Assembly: GCA_052034235.1 (NCBI GenBank)
Contig: JBPOIT010000013.1
Coordinates: 3,257-67,256, forward strand
DNA: 64,000 nt
Source of the DNA: Candidatus Levyibacteriota bacterium
GTDB lineage: Bacteria; Patescibacteriota; Microgenomatia; Levybacterales; UBA12049
Direction: 5' to 3'
The position numbers were made by a program, and so were the translations under genes. The stretch's first letter is position 1. Every line of letters begins with the position of its first letter. The notes beneath the pieces are model-generated. The model made no database searches. It was not told where the DNA came from and was given only the letters and a program-made list of their open reading frames with translations. Shown here piece after piece: positions 46,535 through 63,385 of the stretch.

Positions 46535-48400
46535 ATGAAAACGAGATTATTATTTATTATTATATTTTCTGTTTTTTGTTTACTAGGTGCTTTTTCGCGA
46601 CTCTATCAAATTCAAGTTGTCCCAGCTTCAATCAGTTATGATGAGCTTGACCATGTGATAAATGGACTCAGTATTTTTTATACAGGAAAAGATATACAAG
46701 GTGAACATTTTTTTTGGGAACTATATCCTACGCAAACACATACATTTACTGCCGAATTAAGCGGCTTGTGGCATAGTTTTGTCTCATTTCTACCTCTTCC
46801 AAACTATACACTAGCACGGTTACCCAATATCATTGCAGGCTTTGTAGCATCCGGTGCATTTGCTTTTTTTGTCTATCAGGTCTTTCGATCGAGAAAAATT
46901 GCTCTCATAGTTCTTGCGCTTATGCTGGTCTCACCATGGCATATTTTACTTTCAAGAACTGCCTATGAAGCACCAGTTGCACTAGCATGGCTCATTAGTA
47001 GTATTGTATTCTTCTGGCAAATGCTAGAGAAGAGAAAAAATAAACAAAAAATTATCTATTTGGCACTCACAATTTTTTGTATGCTCGCGTCATTTTATAC
47101 GTATCACGGTTACAAAATGCTCTTTCCTTTCATCTTTATCCTAGTATTTCTTTGGAATAGAAAAACATCAATCAAAACAAGTTTTACGAAAAAGGGTATA
47201 AAGGAAATTTCAAATTATGCAATTCTTCTAATTCTCTTCTCTTGGCTTGTCGCATTCGCATTATTCAGTTATCGATTGAATGAGGGACACTATGGAAATC
47301 GAACAAGTGAAATCTCCATCCTCAACACTGAAGGCGCAACAGAAAAAGTGAATGCTGTGAGACAGGGTAGTTTAGAAAATCGATACAATTCAGTATTTGT
47401 AAATAAAGGTACGGTCGTTAGTGATCAAATAGAGAATAATTTTTTAGAGTCTTTTGACCCGGCAATGCTCTTTTTTAATGGATATGATAAATCGTATGTG
47501 TTAGGTCTTTGGGAACACGGCTTTTTGTATATTATTCAGCTGCCGTTGATTATCATAGGTTTCTTGTGGGCAAGTAAATATAAATCACGGGATACTATCT
47601 TTTTACATATTTTTATACTTATATCGGTTATTCCTGTCGTTATTCATACAAACACATCTGTCGCACTCCGTTCAGGGCTCCTTATTCCAATTCTGATACT
47701 ATTTTCTGCATTTGGAGTATATATACTCATTGCAAAAAAGTATTTTGGCAAACCAATAATGGTAACCCTATTGCTTACTGCTTTGTTGTTTAGTGTTTTT
47801 CGATTTCAACACATGTATTTCTTCCGTTTTCCAATCAATAATATAGATACATCATTATTCCAAGAAAGATTAGCGTCTGGCTATGTTGCAAGCACACATG
47901 ATGAAGGTATTCCTGTAATTGTTTTTGCAAATGAACCATATAATTCAATTCGTGTGACTGCATTTTCAGCTAGGCTTATCAATAGCAGTACAATAAGAGA
48001 TTGGCAAAAAATTCTTTCAAATCCTCGCCAAGGTACTTATACATATAACAATTTTACATTTACCAACGAGTGTAAACACGCAGGTACCATACAACCAGGA
48101 CGTGTCATTGTTGCATCACCAGATCTTGCTGCAAACTGTAATTTAGAAAATAACTATGCAGCATATGCTGCAAATCTCAAAGTGAAGAATATGGGACCAC
48201 AAGTAATAGTACTTCCATCACCACGAGATAATCATGATTATTATAGAGTTTTTAACGATCAGCTGTGCAAAAACCGTTTTGTACCTGGACAAATATGGAT
48301 AAAAAAAGCTGAAGATTATAAGATTGAGGCATTATCACCTGATGATTTATGTGGGAAGTGGACAAAAATAGAGAGTTTTCGTCTTAAAAAAAGCACTTAG
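46535..48400 (+). CDS. GT39/ArnT-like GT-C membrane glycosyltransferase (type E, third paralog) with C-terminal soluble domain
   Basis: ISYDELDHVINGLSIF (DE motif) and LVSPWHILLSRTAYEAP. 621 aa. Confidence 0.65.
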   Translation: MKTRLLFIIIFSVFCLLGAFSRLYQIQVVPASISYDELDHVINGLSIFYTGKDIQGEHFFWELYPTQTHTFTAELSGLWHSFVSFLPLPNYTLARLPNIIAGFVASGAFAFFVYQVFRSRKIALIVLALMLVSPWHILLSRTAYEAPVALAWLISSIVFFWQMLEKRKNKQKIIYLALTIFCMLASFYTYHGYKMLFPFIFILVFLWNRKTSIKTSFTKKGIKEISNYAILLILFSWLVAFALFSYRLNEGHYGNRTSEISILNTEGATEKVNAVRQGSLENRYNSVFVNKGTVVSDQIENNFLESFDPAMLFFNGYDKSYVLGLWEHGFLYIIQLPLIIIGFLWASKYKSRDTIFLHIFILISVIPVVIHTNTSVALRSGLLIPILILFSAFGVYILIAKKYFGKPIMVTLLLTALLFSVFRFQHMYFFRFPINNIDTSLFQERLASGYVASTHDEGIPVIVFANEPYNSIRVTAFSARLINSSTIRDWQKILSNPRQGTYTYNNFTFTNECKHAGTIQPGRVIVASPDLAANCNLENNYAAYAANLKVKNMGPQVIVLPSPRDNHDYYRVFNDQLCKNRFVPGQIWIKKAEDYKIEALSPDDLCGKWTKIESFRLKKST

Positions 48401-49149
48401 TGCACTTTATTCTGTTTCTCCCACAATTTTGCATAGGTGATGAACATGCTAAATGATTGATAGATACTTTCAACAAGTCCTGCAGTGCCCGCTCGCCATC
48501 CTTCTTGTTTTATATACGAACCATAAAAGGCAGTTAGCATGACACGAAAGAATCTCCAGCCTGACATTTTAGGATGATTTGCTTTTAGTCGCAAATCAGC
48601 CTCAACATCTGACCATTTGATAGTTTTTTCGACCATAGACGTTAAGTCACGATGCGTGTAATGGAATAGAAATCCGTCTTCAATATCTGCAATTTCTCCA
48701 TCAACTTTTGCTGTCTCATGCAAATCACCATACCACTCCTGCAGTTTTGTTTTTTTGAATAACCGCTCAAGTTTTTCAATATATGGCCATTCATGATTTC
48801 CAAAGTAAAAGTTTTTTCTTTTTATCCGGTAAGCACTAACTGTTGATCGCTCTTTTGCAACGAGATCCTGAATGCTTGTCTTCAACTCAGGAGATATCCG
48901 CTCATCTGAATCAACATACAGTATCCATTTTCCCTTTGCTTTTTTCAGTCCGAAATTCCGTTTTTCAGCAAAACTTTTTGCTTCATCTGAGAACACATGG
49001 GCCCCCATATGTTTTGCTAGATCAACTGTCCGATCGGTTGAATTATCATCAATAACAATTATCTCATCACAAAAAGAAACAGAATCAAGACAGTCTGCAA
49101 TCAACTCTTCTGCGTTTTTAGTAAGTATAATAGCTGAAATCTTTATCAT
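48397..49149 (-). CDS. GT2 family glycosyltransferase (type D paralog)
   Basis: ISAIILTKNAEELIADCLDSV...IIVIDDNSTDRT...LYVDSDERISPEL. Confidence 0.7.
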   Translation of the reverse strand: MIKISAIILTKNAEELIADCLDSVSFCDEIIVIDDNSTDRTVDLAKHMGAHVFSDEAKSFAEKRNFGLKKAKGKWILYVDSDERISPELKTSIQDLVAKERSTVSAYRIKRKNFYFGNHEWPYIEKLERLFKKTKLQEWYGDLHETAKVDGEIADIEDGFLFHYTHRDLTSMVEKTIKWSDVEADLRLKANHPKMSGWRFFRVMLTAFYGSYIKQEGWRAGTAGLVESIYQSFSMFITYAKLWEKQNKVH

Positions 49150-49168: not shown

Positions 49169-49864
49169 CTAAGCATAAACTGGAAATCTCGTGTTTTCTT
49201 CTGCTTCAATAAGCATATCTCTGAAATCCGCGATGATACGTTCTTCAAGACTGGAAAGCCCTGGCTGCTCAACCATTCGCACATCGACCGGATCCATAAG
49301 AAGTTTAACAATATGCAATTTGTTAGCCGCAACAGCAGCTCCTGTTGCTGTGATATCTAGAATACCATCACATCCAGGAACTGCATACTGAAGCGCCTCT
49401 GTAGAACCAGGCATTGCCCAAACCTCAACAGTATCTGCAAATAAATCTCCTGCAATACCTGGAAATTTGGTAACAATGGTACTACCTCTTAAATCATCGG
49501 ATACAGGTTCTCTGCCTTTTTCGTCAAGAACCCGATTTCTCAAAGAGTTAGTGACTCCAATAAATAATGTCCCGCTATTCGGAATAGTTGGGATAGGCTC
49601 GCCTTGCTCTCTCATTCCTGCATTCCAAAGGATATCACCTCCTGTTATCCCCGCTCTTGTCTTTGTTCTTTCACTAGTAACAATTTCAGGTACACTACTC
49701 GGACGAATAAGCAACATTTCAATTCCCAAGCGATCAACTGTTACAAGATTCTGCTTTGTCTCAACAGGAATTGCTAAACCCGCACGTCGTAATTGCATAT
49801 TTACCGGCTTTCCTAATTCACCTGTTGGAACTGCAATTTGCACTCTATTAAATTTTTCAGTCAT
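49169..49864 (-). CDS. hisG: ATP phosphoribosyltransferase, short (HisZ-dependent) form
   Basis: Start chosen at ATG 49864, preceded by AAAGGAGG 7 nt upstream. The ORF-track frame extends to 49915 but would run into the terminator. MTEKFNRVQIAVPTGEL..., LLIRPSSVPEIVTSERTKTRAGITGGDIL, and MPGSTEALQYAVPGCDGILDITATGAAVAANKL match HisG signature blocks. Confidence 0.75.
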   Translation of the reverse strand: MTEKFNRVQIAVPTGELGKPVNMQLRRAGLAIPVETKQNLVTVDRLGIEMLLIRPSSVPEIVTSERTKTRAGITGGDILWNAGMREQGEPIPTIPNSGTLFIGVTNSLRNRVLDEKGREPVSDDLRGSTIVTKFPGIAGDLFADTVEVWAMPGSTEALQYAVPGCDGILDITATGAAVAANKLHIVKLLMDPVDVRMVEQPGLSSLEERIIADFRDMLIEAEENTRFPVYA

Positions 49865-49896
49865 ATTAATCCTCCTTTCTTTAATTTTTTTTCCAC

Positions 49897-49952
49897 AAAA
49901 AAACCTTTCGTTCACTACTTATTACGAAACGTAATAAATAAGGAACGAAAGG
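49897..49952 (-). terminator. strong hairpin plus U7 (second terminator-like element of the hisG leader)
   Basis: The minus-strand RNA forms a perfect 10-bp stem (CCUUUCGUUC...GAACGAAAGG) with an extended inner stem, followed by U7 (49903..49897). It lies between the T-box core and the hisG RBS. Confidence 0.5.
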
Positions 49953-50135
49953 TACAAAAAAAGGACCTTCCGCGGTCCCATCCTTATTCCTAATCTATTG
50001 CTAAACTAGGCTCTTAACGGCGACTCCGCGATAGCGACATCGTCTGTTGTATTTAACGGTTCAACTTCCGTAAGGCATTTTGGCCTTCAGCTCCCGGATC
50101 GTGACTCCGGTCAAACGCTTTTATTATTAAATTGT
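49945..50135 (-). promoter_or_regulatory. T-box riboswitch-like leader, probably tRNA-His responsive, upstream of hisG
   Basis: The RNA contains AGGAAUAAGGAUGGGACCGCGG, against the T-box consensus AAUUAGGGUGGNACCGCGG. N = G fits the C73 discriminator of tRNA-His. An upstream hairpin CCGGAGUCACGAUCCGG exposes CAC. The region is GC-rich and structured, and is followed by two hairpin-U7 elements and the hisG SD. Confidence 0.5.
49956..49978 (-). terminator. hairpin plus U7 overlapping the T-box core (first terminator-like element)
   Basis: RNA GGACC-GCGGAA-GGUCC followed by U7 (49962..49956). The stem includes the ACC of the UGGGACC bulge sequence. Confidence 0.45.
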
Positions 50136-50141
50136 AATTTT

Positions 50142-50169
50142 ATTATAACAGCTCAGGAAATAAAGTCAA
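50142..50169 (-). promoter_or_regulatory. sigma70-type promoter of the T-box/hisG transcript
   Basis: On the minus strand: -35 TTGACT (50169..50164), 16-nt spacer, -10 TATAAT (50147..50142). Confidence 0.45.
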
Positions 50170-59930: not shown

Positions 59931-61370
59931 ATGGATTCCCAAACAAAAACATTAGCATCATTCCTCGAAATACCATATGACAAGTTGGAAGAAATGAATC
60001 TTGATGTCATGGCAAAAGCAGAAACTCTTTCCCCCAAAGAACTCGAAAAAGAATTTACAACGTTTCTCAAAAAAGAAAAGGGCATAAAGGCTGTAACCGT
60101 ATGTTTCACCGATATTGAAGGCCGCTTCCATATGCTTGATTATGATAAGAAATTTTTACTTGATTCTTTAAGCAATTTAACGTTTGATGGATCTTCAATT
60201 CGAGGATTTTCAGCTCAATCAGAGTCCGATTTGCGACTTGATGTTGATTGGTCCAGTGTCAGATATTTACCGGCAGATGTCTTTGGACCTGGGAAAATAA
60301 TGGTTTTTGCATCGGTTCTCAATAGAGATCGCTCCCCGTATGAATCTGATTTTCGTGGTCAATTAAAACTGTACACCGAGCAGCTTAAGAAAAAAGACGG
60401 TTTGACGGCTTTTGCTTCACCTGAAATTGAAGGATTTTTAGTTGACGGTGTTAATGCTGAGCAGGATTACGCAATGAGTCATGGATTCAAACTTATCTCA
60501 ACGGGCGGATATTTCCATTCGCTCCCAATGGATAAACTTCGTACCTTTATCGATAAAGCAGCAGAAGTACAAAGAGCCCTCGGTTTCCGCAATGAAAAAG
60601 ATCATCCTGAAGTTGCTCCTTCACAATTTGAAATGAATTTCTCTTATTCAGAGATTGTCAGAGCAGCTGATCAGATCCAGTTATATAAACTCGTCTGCCG
60701 TCAGGTAGCACGAACAATGGGCATGACTGCAACCTTTTTACCTAAACCAGTAATCGGTATCAATGGTTCTGGAATGCATTCTAATTTCTCACTCGCTAAA
60801 AACGGCAAAAATATTTTCCATGATCCAAAAGGCCAGGAAGGACTTTCTGATGTCGCATGGGATTTAATCATGAAGCTTTTAAACCATGCACAAGAAATTT
60901 GTTTGATTATGAATTCATCAGTTAATGCATATAGAAGACTTGATCCGCACTTTGAAGCACCAAACCAAATCAAAGTTTCAGCACTCGACCGCGGATCAAT
61001 GATCAGAATTCCCGTCGGAAATGAAAAAACATCAAGAATTGAAATCCGCTCAGTTGCACCTGATGCCAATCCATATATGTGGTTTTATACCATCCTGCAA
61101 GTACATAAACACGGAACCAAACTGCAAAAGAATGAAGAAAAGCGCGACAGAATGCGTTTCCTTCCAGACAACATTAATGATGCAATTAGGCTTTTCAAAT
61201 CAAGTGACTTTATAACAACAATTCTCGGCGCACAGAATAAAGAAAAATATGCAGCATTTAAACAAGCAGCTGCCGACAGAAGTCCAAAGGCACTTGGAAC
61301 ACTCGTTAAAGATTCTGAAGTTATTTATCATCACGAAGTAACCAACCAAGTTCTTTGGAATAATTTCTAA
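59931..61370 (+). CDS. glnA: glutamine synthetase
   Basis: TFDGSSIRGF, HPEVAPSQFEM, KPVIGINGSGMHSNFSL, NAYRRL and RIPVGNEKTSRIEIRSVAPDANPYM are GS signature blocks. 479 aa. Confidence 0.85.
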   Translation: MDSQTKTLASFLEIPYDKLEEMNLDVMAKAETLSPKELEKEFTTFLKKEKGIKAVTVCFTDIEGRFHMLDYDKKFLLDSLSNLTFDGSSIRGFSAQSESDLRLDVDWSSVRYLPADVFGPGKIMVFASVLNRDRSPYESDFRGQLKLYTEQLKKKDGLTAFASPEIEGFLVDGVNAEQDYAMSHGFKLISTGGYFHSLPMDKLRTFIDKAAEVQRALGFRNEKDHPEVAPSQFEMNFSYSEIVRAADQIQLYKLVCRQVARTMGMTATFLPKPVIGINGSGMHSNFSLAKNGKNIFHDPKGQEGLSDVAWDLIMKLLNHAQEICLIMNSSVNAYRRLDPHFEAPNQIKVSALDRGSMIRIPVGNEKTSRIEIRSVAPDANPYMWFYTILQVHKHGTKLQKNEEKRDRMRFLPDNINDAIRLFKSSDFITTILGAQNKEKYAAFKQAAADRSPKALGTLVKDSEVIYHHEVTNQVLWNNF

Positions 61371-61436
61371 GTAGCATCGTCATTCGCACTTACAGCTAAA
61401 TTACCTAAGTATGAGTGGCGATTCTTTGTTTTTACA

Positions 61437-62747
61437 ATGAAAAACAGACGAACATATTATTCGTATCAGACAAAACTAGCACACGAAAACTTCCCCTTCA
61501 CCTCGACTCCTGCGCACAAAGACATCCTCATCGCGATGGCCGATATTAAAGAAGCCGCAGCCTTTGCCCATATGAATACCGGCGAAATGGATGAAGACAT
61601 CGCATTTGCTATCATCAAAGCCGCACGCGAAGTCAGAAAAGGAAATTTTGATGATCAATTTACCCTTCCGGGTCTTCAGGGTGGTGCCGGTACATCAATT
61701 CACATGAATCTCAATGAGGTCATCGCCGCAAGAGCAACTGAGATACTTATGAATAAGGGTATCAATAAAACAGTTCACCCAAATGATCATGTCAACAAAA
61801 GCCAATCAACAAATGATGTCGGGCCGTCAGCATTAAAAATCGCCAGTGCGCGTCTTGCCAAAACTCTTTTACAAACGTTAAATGAAACGACTAGTGTGTT
61901 TGAAGAAAAACAAAACCAATTTCGTCACATTGCCAAACTCGGCAGAACCCATCTGCAGGATGCAGTTCCGACGACATTGGGTGAAGAATTTGGTTCGTAT
62001 ACCGCAACCATTCAACGCGGCAGGACAAGAATTGAAAGTGTTCTCCCCTACCTTTACGAATTAAACATCGGCGGCACTGCAATTGGTAATTGCGTCAATG
62101 CATCATTTGCCTACAGACAAGAGGTCTACAAAGCACTTAAACGCATTACCAAACTGCCAGTTAAGCCGGCACCAAATCTTATGTCACAAACAAGTTCACA
62201 AACTGATTTTGTCTTTCTTTCACAAGCACTGACATCAGTGATGGCAGATTTATCAAAAATTGCCAACGATTTTCGTTTGATGACAAGTGGACCAAACGGC
62301 GGGCTTGGAGAGATACGAATTAAGGAACTACAACCTGGTTCATCAATTATGCCAGGCAAAGCAAATCCTATCCTTCCGGAATCTATCAATCAGGCGTACT
62401 TTTTTATATCCGGCAACAACCTCACCATCGAAATGGCTGCACAAGCAGCACAACTTGAGTTGGGTGTTATGATTCCAGTTATTGCTGACAGACTTATTGC
62501 CTCCATGCAGCTGGCAGATGAAGTCATAGAAGTCTTCACGAAGAAGTGTGTCAAAATCATTGAAGCAAATGAAGAACGCTGTAAAGAGCTTTTAGAAAAT
62601 TCAACTGCGTACGCAACAATGCTTACACCCAAACTCGGCTATGAACAGGTGAGCAAAATGGTTAAAGCGTCGAGAGAAAATACTACCGCTCTTTCGGATA
62701 TTCGGGAACATGCAAACTACGGCAATTTTGTAATAAAACAGAAATAA
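61437..62747 (+). CDS. aspA: class II fumarate-lyase family enzyme, aspartate ammonia-lyase-like
   Basis: GSSIMPGKANP signature and SQSTNDVGPS. The post-signature stretch NPILPESINQAYFFISGNNLTIEMAAQAAQLEL looks more like aspartase than FumC. 436 aa. Confidence 0.6.
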   Translation: MKNRRTYYSYQTKLAHENFPFTSTPAHKDILIAMADIKEAAAFAHMNTGEMDEDIAFAIIKAAREVRKGNFDDQFTLPGLQGGAGTSIHMNLNEVIAARATEILMNKGINKTVHPNDHVNKSQSTNDVGPSALKIASARLAKTLLQTLNETTSVFEEKQNQFRHIAKLGRTHLQDAVPTTLGEEFGSYTATIQRGRTRIESVLPYLYELNIGGTAIGNCVNASFAYRQEVYKALKRITKLPVKPAPNLMSQTSSQTDFVFLSQALTSVMADLSKIANDFRLMTSGPNGGLGEIRIKELQPGSSIMPGKANPILPESINQAYFFISGNNLTIEMAAQAAQLELGVMIPVIADRLIASMQLADEVIEVFTKKCVKIIEANEERCKELLENSTAYATMLTPKLGYEQVSKMVKASRENTTALSDIREHANYGNFVIKQK

Positions 62748-62797
62748 TCTCCCAAAGAGTCTTGCGAAAAACCTCAATTGTGTTATATTTTAAGTAC

Positions 62798-63385
62798 ATG
62801 ACGATCCGTTCATTTATAAAATCACTTCCAGCTGTTCTTGTCGTTTTTCTTCTCGCACCTTCTCCTGCAAGTGCACATGTGATCGGCGGCAACGGTTTTG
62901 CAAGCGGGATAACACATCCACTCCTTGGTTTGGATCATCTTCTTGCCATGATTGCTGTCGGCATAATCGCAGTTCAGTCAGGAGGCAGAGCTGTGTGGTC
63001 AGTGCCTCTGGCATTTGTATCAGCGATGATTTTGGGAGGCATACTAGGAATGGCCGGCGTGCAGCTTCCCTTTGTTGAAACCGGCATTGCGTTTTCACTG
63101 TTAGTATTTGGAAGCCTTATCGCAGTTTCTAAAAAACTCCCAACGAGTTTGGCAATCGTTTGTGTATCGCTCTTTGCCCTTTTCCATGGTCATGCACACG
63201 GGACGGAAATGACTGCAGCTTCCAATCCTGTTTTGTTTACAACAGGTTTTATTCTCTCAACAGCTGCTCTTCATAGCGCTGGTATCTTGGCAGGCTTATC
63301 TGCGAAACGCGCATCATTTTCTTTACACGTTCTAAAAGCCTCAGGCGTCGCGATGAGTGTCGCCGGAGTTGTTTTCTTCATATAG
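62798..63385 (+). CDS. HupE/UreJ-family Ni/Co transporter-like membrane protein
   Basis: Signal peptide ending ASA-HV, then the HPLLGLDHLLAMIAVG (HxxxGxDH) motif, and a hydrophobic Gly/Ala-rich body with a second His cluster FHGHAHG. Start taken at the internal ATG 62798 of ORF-track frame 62762..63385. Confidence 0.65.
   Translation: MTIRSFIKSLPAVLVVFLLAPSPASAHVIGGNGFASGITHPLLGLDHLLAMIAVGIIAVQSGGRAVWSVPLAFVSAMILGGILGMAGVQLPFVETGIAFSLLVFGSLIAVSKKLPTSLAIVCVSLFALFHGHAHGTEMTAASNPVLFTTGFILSTAALHSAGILAGLSAKRASFSLHVLKASGVAMSVAGVVFFI

Follow-up and report, generated by a model that had tools for sequence, protein, structure and literature searches.

A probable tRNA-His-specific T-box leader with an ultrashort Stem I and two hairpin-U elements in front of a HisG-like gene in a glycan cluster of a member of the Patescibacteria

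Why would a tightly structured RNA with a promoter of its own lie in front of a hisG-like gene in the midst of a large glycan-synthesis cluster? The question is raised by a 64,000-nucleotide (nt) stretch of DNA from a Candidatus Levyibacteriota bacterium (contig JBPOIT010000013.1; the whole stretch is called the window below), in which an earlier note, made from the sequence alone, had described a T-box-like leader with histidine-type features and two successive hairpin-U7 elements upstream of hisG. T-box riboswitches are the textbook case of a structured RNA that reads another RNA. All features named in that note are confirmed on the minus strand where it had placed them, and our analysis makes it very probable that the segment 50124..49897 (minus strand) is a His-specific T-box leader with its own promoter, which attenuates transcription of the HisG-like gene and probably also that of the GT2 glycosyltransferase gene behind it. 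The proposed specificity for tRNA-His is borne out by an alignment with the Rfam T-box model, by about 85 covarying homologues, by the histidine regulon of these homologues and by neighbouring tRNA-His genes with the anticodon GUG and C73.

The leader was said to be a GC-rich, structured RNA in AT-rich surroundings, and so it is: the GC content of the aptamer is 47% as compared to 35.6% window-wide, a value among the highest 0.7% for segments of 170 nt, and the leader folds with -85.4 kcal/mol as opposed to -61.3 +/- 4.2 kcal/mol for shuffled sequences (z = -5.7), none of 200 shuffles being as stable. End-to-end alignment with the T-box family model of Rfam (RF00230, model positions 1-219) gives 49.2 bits and an E-value of 1e-9 in E-value mode and matches the base of Stem I, Stem II, Stem IIA with the F-box CCGUUA, Stem III and the T-box sequence. 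The search with this model thus returns a significant E-value but a score below the curated gathering cut-off of 93 bits, and a scan of the whole window with Rfam at gathering thresholds gave no match. The score is this low because Stem I is cut down to 5 base pairs (bp) and a 7-nt loop, the 75 Stem I positions of the model being reduced to 6 nt in the window leader. The threshold is reached by no T-box match in 18 related loci either. The models Phe_leader, BTnc231 and those of miRNAs, which gave low matches in E-value mode, were rejected as they merely match the long AU-rich hairpin 2 described below.

Does the leader then belong to a family of its own? The route via the HisG-like protein yielded only 7 homologues among 5.8 billion proteins. 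The homologue in locus L003 (such handles are used where loci have to be told apart) is 65% identical at the protein level, has the same gene order and is preceded by a homologous leader with both hairpin-U elements. A scan for the pattern AGTCACGAT-N(95-125)-GGRTGGGACCGCG in one genome per species, covering 185,579 species, returned 90 DNA stretches, about 85 of which are clearly homologous leaders, nearly all from Patescibacteria, also known as the candidate phyla radiation (CPR). Their hosts are Gottesman-, Davies-, Woese-, Blackburn-, Ames- and Levybacteria, Saccharibacteria, Paceibacterota and Dojkabacteria; leaders labelled 'uncultured Gammaproteobacteria' are of one sequence family with the others, and this label is probably wrong. 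Four stretches (L014, L024, L096 and L098) were set aside as chance matches to the pattern in GC-rich DNA, for which the class model gives no score. In an alignment of 87 distinct leaders we examined seven helices with 36 pairs in all, namely the base helix, Stem I, Stem II, Stem IIA, the IIA/B pseudoknot, a linker hairpin and Stem III. Of the cells in these helices 91.3% are paired as opposed to 72.3% in shuffled alignments, a value reached by none of 500 shuffles, and 606 cells carry double changes versus 159 in the shuffles, with changes on both sides in 30 pairs; when the 3' partners are slid, pairing falls to 32-41%. All seven helices, the pseudoknot included, are supported by strong covariation. 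The window copy itself scores 193.5 bits with the class model, the fourth best of all matches, and has every helix and motif intact.

The same data bear on a quite different view, according to which the element would be an inactive relic, or a structured terminator of the upstream glycan operon that resembles a T-box without sensing tRNA. Such a view could draw on the lack of a terminator between the upstream GT2 gene (end 50190) and the leader, which implies that the hairpins also end the upstream operon, and on the glycan-cluster context, which is unusual for a histidine switch. It is nevertheless very unlikely in our opinion, as a relic would hardly be among the best scorers of its class, as compensatory changes in both Stem I and Stem II have preserved every element of the L003 leader across that protein distance, and as the leader accompanies the divergent HisG-like subfamily wherever upstream DNA is available (the window, L003, L007 and L008).

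Elements that fit a promoter, a decoding half and a sensing half can be read on the minus strand of the window. The near-consensus promoter claimed for the leader is of the sigma-70 type (50142..50169): TTGACT (50169-50164) is followed after a 16-nt spacer by TATAAT with a TG extension (50147-50142), together an 11/12 match, and a promoter of at least 10/12 is found at the same distance in 71 of the 87 homologous leaders (mean 10.4 versus 7.6 in shuffles). The decoding half starts with a base helix AGC/GCU and a K-turn-like internal loop around an ultrashort Stem I (50089..50119), the base of which is aligned by Rfam. Two of the three pairs of the base helix show compensatory changes. In the K-turn region, which in the window reads UUUGA ... 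GA and is flanked by this covarying 3-bp helix, only two A residues are at least 90% conserved and the G residues vary. Stem I, CCGGA/UCCGG (50110-50094), has 5 bp and a loop GUCACGA (50105-50099) that contains the His codon CAC (50103-50101); it has 5 bp and a 7-nt loop in all 87 relatives, with compensatory changes at 4 of 5 pairs and 98.9% of its cells paired. A Stem I with a specifier loop, as predicted, is therefore present in so far as CAC lies in the loop, but it is non-canonical, ultrashort and without elbow-binding platform, and its specifier is apical. The loop G-U-CAC-G-A may be read as laid out like an anticodon loop, with a U at the U33 position, the triplet and then a purine.

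Stem II (50072..50087) is a short helix AAGGC/GCCUU with the conserved loop CAAAAU, all five pairs of which show compensation (94.9% of cells paired). It is followed by Stem IIA (ACGG/CCGU) with the F-box CCGUUA (50059-50054) and the IIA/B pseudoknot (together 50046..50071); Rfam covers Stem IIA and the F-box, and in the pseudoknot, GUUG (50065-50062) with CAAC (50049-50046), all four pairs covary and 89.9% of cells are paired. An additional linker hairpin CGAU-G-UCGC [UAUC] GCGG-A-GUCG (50019..50044), an insertion in the Rfam alignment, has compensatory changes at 7 of 9 pairs and 91% of its cells paired. The segment 49989..50015 comprises the purine string AAGAG, Stem III (CCUAGU.../...AUUAGG, all six pairs covarying) and AA, and thereby matches the described motif RRRNG-Stem III-AA (PMC7778990).

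What makes this a histidine switch? Behind the relatives' leaders lie genes for HisG, HisD, HisC-like aminotransferases, HisE, HisI and HisS. HisG is the first gene 33 times, mostly in its canonical form of about 290 amino acids (aa), and HisS occurs at 36 loci, often with an EamA transporter; CntK_N-like proteins, M20 and M15 peptidases and others are encoded as well. Moreover, at least 27 loci have a tRNA-His(GUG) gene 3' of the leader and in the same orientation, with G-1 encoded in 27/27 and C73 in 26/27. The proposal that CAC is a His specifier is thus upheld both by the regulation of hisG/D/C/E/I and hisS in the relatives and by sibling leaders with CGC, which carry a different UGGN, and the proposed match of UGGG to the C73 of tRNA-His holds at the level of the class, given the tRNA-His genes near 26 of 27 related leaders. 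In the closest cases the tRNA gene starts 0-20 nt past the terminator U-run, in the others no more than about 130 nt away, and the his or hisS genes come after it (L010:7553-7625, L066:2972-3044, L028:2703-2774, L031:495-567, L089:2913-2985 and at least 22 more loci). Since it lies directly downstream on the same strand, the leader is at these loci the 5' leader of the precursor of its own ligand. The window has just GUGG (49896-49893) past the U-run, possibly a remnant. Just upstream of a His T-box leader, at L043:6555-6660 (minus strand), the Rfam tRNA model matches 106 nt with 45 bits, perhaps a tRNA gene interrupted by an intron or a long insertion.

The siblings, found with the same class model, have the loop AGUCGCGAU with CGC (Arg) and UGGC or UGGU instead of UGGG, and the middle triplet of the loop is therefore a variable specifier. 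Two such Arg-type leaders (L063:6312-6515 and L099:287-418, both plus strand) share the ultrashort architecture and have a single terminator and no hairpin 1; the genes behind them encode a 339-aa protein without Pfam match and a tRNA-binding-domain-like protein. When metagenomes were scanned for the same loop frame with any middle base other than A, one match came up, again an Arg-type leader. Other specifiers thus look rare under this strict loop pattern, which may be too narrow. More distant T-box-like leaders in CPR genomes, both with UGGU, score 34 bits (L021:5497-5737, minus strand) and 20 bits (L079:4504-4664, plus strand) with the class model, and one of the two precedes an ornithine-cyclodeaminase-like gene and a tRNA-binding-domain gene. 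T-boxes seem to be more widespread in CPR than the His class alone.

In the sensing half the T-box segment AGGAAUAAGGAUGGGACCGCGG, read on the minus strand, has its UGGGACC at 49980-49974. The window T-box AAGGAUGGGACCGCG (49985-49971) differs from the consensus AGGGUGGNACCGCG at the first and the fourth position, both before the UGG. By direct reading and by Rfam alignment the T-box sequence is the 5' half of an antiterminator (49965..49988) consisting of A1 (AAUAAGGA), the 7-nt bulge UGGGACC and A2 (GCGGAAGGU). The 3' strand of the antiterminator (49936..49952), CCUUUCGU for A2 and UCCUUAUUU for A1, also serves in the 5' arm of hairpin 2. A1 (49988-49981) is exactly complementary to UCCUUAUU (49944-49937), and A2 pairs as GCGGAAGG/CCUUUCGU. 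The earlier note had offered the first of these pairings as a possible antiterminator; pairing of A1 and A2 to the downstream strand is kept in 85 of the 87 relatives with compensatory variants, such as GGGAGG to GGAAGG in A2 matched by CUCUC to CUUUC. Both helices have 8-9 bp in the window, while A1 has 4-6 bp in most relatives and A2 has 9 bp in 56 of 85. Hairpin 2 (T2, 49897..49953) spans 51 nt (49953-49903), is followed by U7 (49903-49897) and has a predicted energy of -26.6 kcal/mol; an equivalent terminator exists in 78 of the 87 relatives, with a median of -30.6 kcal/mol. Hairpin 2 takes its 5' arm from the antiterminator's 3' strand and is therefore the classical terminator. Of the two terminator-like hairpin-U7 elements claimed, both are present, but it is hairpin 2 and not hairpin 1 which has this role. 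The two conformations are mutually exclusive, and the OFF fold with both hairpins (-41.9 kcal/mol) versus the antiterminator alone (-14.9 kcal/mol) shows the energy ordering that is usual for a T-box.

Could the leader control translation instead, by sequestering the Shine-Dalgarno sequence as in the actinobacterial T-boxes with an ultrashort Stem I? Ultrashort Stem I elements have so far been tied to translational control (PMC7583486, PMC11297988), the known cases all being ileS T-boxes of Actinobacteria, and three Saccharibacteria leaders of the class seem to act in this way: at L033:1386-1650, L041:3723-4000 and L062:5150-5426 there is no T2, and a UCCUU strand pairs with the Shine-Dalgarno sequence AAGGA just before the ATG and would be a translational sequestrator. 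In the window, however, the Shine-Dalgarno sequence lies about 19 nt past the U-run of T2 and is unpaired in the minimum-free-energy fold, U7 tracts follow both hairpins, and T2 with its U-run is conserved in the 78 leaders mentioned. Because the Shine-Dalgarno sequence is free, we take control in the window to be transcriptional and reject the translational alternative for it, which we consider highly improbable. Two of the Saccharibacteria leaders, L041 and L062, keep the hairpin 1 with its U-run.

But what, then, is hairpin 1 for? This element (T1, 49956..49979) consists of GGGACC-GCGGAA-GGUCCU (49979-49962; -9.7 kcal/mol) and U7 (49962-49956). It lies inside the apical loop of the A2 helix, its 5' arm being the T-box bulge and its 3' arm overlapping A2 by 3 nt. 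As a classical terminator it was rejected in view of its location upstream of the 3' strand of the antiterminator: since it precedes that strand, the antiterminator is unable to block it while RNA polymerase is still on its U-tract, and only the 3' end of a tRNA bound to UGGG could keep it from forming at this stage. At the T1 site, 81 of the 87 leaders have a hairpin with an energy of -4 kcal/mol or lower and no fewer than 5 U, its U-run is at least 90% conserved, and the 3' arm occurs in three registers across the leaders (GGUCC, GCGGUC and GGUCUC). This conservation clearly points to selection on hairpin 1. Where relatives carry insertions, which reach about 115 nt, these always lie 3' of the T1 U-run. 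Insertions of about 90-115 nt (GAUGGGACAACGAUCUCAUCAUCCUCC...GGAGGAU) separate the U-run of hairpin 1 from the antiterminator's 3' strand in L008 (4790-4905), L025 and L042, and those of about 90 nt in L008 and L025 match no Rfam family; L015, L023 and L077 carry a small hairpin, GCUCAUGAGUAUGAGC, as an insertion at this position.

Hairpin 1 could be an early terminator that is blocked directly by the tRNA's 3' end, a pause site or an anti-antiterminator lock. If it were a pause site or lock, the same T-box would hold UGGGACC and part of A2 in hairpin 1 until these are displaced, either by the tRNA's 3' end or by the downstream strand, and the sole decision would fall at hairpin 2. This is a quite conceivable alternative, if somewhat less likely than not. 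It would fit the short T1 stem of 5-6 bp with -8 to -10 kcal/mol, and it would make use of the T1 loop GCGGGA, whose complementarity to the 3' strand of the antiterminator makes a toehold possible; with its unusual length (9 bp in 56 of 85) A2 could need a lock on its 5' strand, and pausing would give extra time for tRNA capture where there is no elbow contact (kinetic argument, PMC7583486). A mere lock, however, would need no U-run, and a run of U6-U8 stands directly behind T1 in 81 of 87 leaders. Likewise, T1 is the sole terminator-like element before hisG in L073, and it is kept by the Saccharibacteria leaders L041 and L062, and probably L054, even though T2 has given way there to the Shine-Dalgarno sequestrator. 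The Arg-type siblings, finally, have an ultrashort Stem I without T1, which implies that T1 is no general compensation for a short Stem I.

What is established here are the sequence and structure elements with their covariation, the mutually exclusive pairings and the histidine regulon of the relatives with its matching tRNA-His; from these we infer tRNA binding, termination at either U-tract and a particular role of hairpin 1. In the mechanism that we propose, the decoding half would consist of the K-turn-like base, the 5-bp Stem I with an anticodon-loop-like cap showing the His codon, the 5-bp Stem II and the IIA/B pseudoknot, followed by a canonical sensing half of purines, Stem III, AA and then AAGGA-UGGGACC-GCGG. 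Uncharged tRNA-His would bind CAC through its GUG anticodon and UGGG through its 3' CCCA. Bound to UGGG it would block hairpin 1, whose stem needs GGGACC, and would stabilise the antiterminator (A1 of 8-9 bp, 7-nt bulge, A2 of 8-9 bp), so that hairpin 2 would not form and RNA polymerase would read through. If the tRNA-His were charged or tRNA were absent, both hairpins would form and transcription would stop at 49956-49962 or at 49897-49903. A further-reaching proposal, which we put forward only tentatively and which may well prove wrong, is that of a previously unclassified CPR-wide class of T-boxes that sense tRNA-His co-transcriptionally without elbow contact: a terminator hairpin built from the T-box bulge would be the first checkpoint, blocked by the tRNA's 3' end before the antiterminator exists, the classical decision would come second, and about one third of the members would also be the 5' leader of a tRNA-His precursor and thus control the synthesis of their own ligand.

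Several points weigh against a His-specific T-box leader that acts by attenuation. The score of 49.2 bits with RF00230 remains below the gathering threshold of 93. The distal part of Stem I, with the AG bulge and the distal loop that form the elbow platform, is absent from the window leader, and this elbow-binding part is generally required for transcriptional T-boxes (PMC7583486; also PMC11297988). There are no tRNA genes in the window, so that GUG and C73 are known from the relatives. The stem of hairpin 1 has only 5-6 bp and the Arg-type siblings do without it, which leaves its role as a terminator uncertain. Finally, that the loop AGUCACGAU and the T-box core do not vary is built into the alignment, as the search pattern fixed both; the evidence from the alignment outside the loop and the T-box core is independent of this choice.

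Which genes would be controlled by such an attenuator in the window? Behind the Shine-Dalgarno sequence AAAGGAGG (49878-49871) a gene of the HisG family starts with ATG at 49864 and encodes 231 aa (49169..49864, minus strand; 49169..49878 with the Shine-Dalgarno sequence). The start of 'hisG' is thus where it had been expected, but the product is a divergent HisG-like protein: it passes Pfam PF01634 with 44.9 bits, scores 61.1 bits with the NCBIfam equivalog TIGR00070 and thereby misses the cut-off of 75.75, and its best match to a solved HisG structure has an E-value of only 9e-5. Its region corresponding to the phosphoribosyl pyrophosphate (PRPP) loop reads DITATGAAV as compared to DLVSTGATL in E. 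coli HisG, and it is 23-28% identical to canonical HisG proteins of CPR bacteria. It belongs to a rare subfamily of short HisG-like proteins found in the window and in L003, L004, L005, L007 and L008; in L005 and L008 the gene adjoins hisS. The GT2 glycosyltransferase gene (48397..49149, minus strand; PF00535, E-value 3.7e-21) begins 19 nt past the stop codon of the HisG-like gene, no terminator is predicted between the two in the window, and the gene pair is also present in L003 and L004. Going by this operon structure, the GT2 gene is likely to be co-transcribed and co-regulated with the HisG-like gene. Of the claim that hisG and GT2 are under termination control, the attenuator architecture before the HisG-like gene is therefore confirmed, and the coupling of GT2 is suggested by the operon structure only. 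That the leader lies inside a glycan cluster also proved right, as its surroundings are a large glycan-synthesis cluster. Positions 1-59763 of the window are mostly coded on the minus strand, in an unusually long run of about 45 co-oriented genes; among the minority that were scanned are genes for GT2, GT1, GT87-like and PMT-like transferases, YfhO/PTPS-related membrane proteins, a Wzx-type flippase and a 1018-aa Wzy_C protein. Beyond this run lie glnA, a Lyase_1 gene and a HupE/UreJ gene (59931-63385).

If our reading is correct, the element matters for several reasons. An ultrashort Stem I goes with slow, reversible translational control, and a long Stem I with fast tRNA capture (PMC7583486, PMC11297988); an ultrashort Stem I in combination with intrinsic terminators makes this kinetic argument for the long Stem I directly testable. 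The minimal decoding module of about 75 nt would be useful for structural and engineering work. In many Patescibacteria histidine homeostasis, from biosynthesis, hisS, transport and peptidases even to the tRNA-His gene, appears to be built around one compact riboswitch, which standard Rfam annotation misses. In the window itself, the leader marks a HisG-like gene and, as its operon position suggests, a GT2 gene within a glycan cluster as responsive to histidine starvation.

How does the leader compare with T-boxes already known? Canonical transcriptional T-boxes are exemplified by Bacillus subtilis tyrS and the his operon of Lactococcus. With these the window class shares the 7-nt UGGNACC bulge, an antiterminator and a terminator that share a strand, the intrinsic terminator platform, Stem II, the IIA/B pseudoknot, the F-box and Stem III with its flanking purines; as in these, the specifier matches the regulated pathway and the N of UGGN would match the discriminator base of the tRNA, to judge from C73 in the tRNA-His genes of the relatives. 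Different from them, it lacks the internal specifier loop, the AG bulge and the distal-loop platform and hence the contact to the tRNA elbow, and its specifier sits in a 7-nt apical loop on a Stem I of 5 bp, with a Stem II of likewise 5 bp. Moreover, it has an extra linker hairpin, an A2 of 8-9 bp and a second hairpin-U7 inside the antiterminator loop, it stays below the Rfam gathering threshold, and its hosts are Patescibacteria rather than Firmicutes.

In the decoding half there is a likeness to the actinobacterial translational T-boxes with ultrashort Stem I ('class II'), known from ileS of Mycobacterium and Nocardia (Sherwood et al. 2015, as cited in PMC7583486; structures 6UFG and 6UFM). 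Like these, the window class combines a truncated Stem I and an apical-loop specifier with a canonical discriminator domain and relies on Stem II and the IIA/B pseudoknot, not on an elbow platform. It differs in having intrinsic terminators instead of a Shine-Dalgarno sequestrator, a His (CAC) instead of an Ile specifier and a much shorter Stem II, in regulating genes of histidine biosynthesis, hisS and tRNA-His rather than ileS, and in belonging to another phylum; the class II model of TBDB was searched in Actinobacteria only (PMC7778990). More than one checkpoint per leader is known from attenuators such as tandem T-boxes and the stem Sa insertions in the antiterminator of staphylococcal glyS (PMC9177973). 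The window class resembles them in its extra elements in the antiterminator/terminator domain and in having more than one decision point per leader, yet it has a single aptamer with two terminator-like hairpins, the first of which is built from the bulge and precedes the 3' strand of the antiterminator. A literature search of incomplete coverage, which leaves room for a prior description, found no paper that links T-boxes to CPR, Patescibacteria or Saccharibacteria. While the T-box as a kind of riboswitch is well known, what appears to be new here is the union of an ultrashort Stem I with transcription termination and with a conserved additional hairpin-U element on the T-box bulge.

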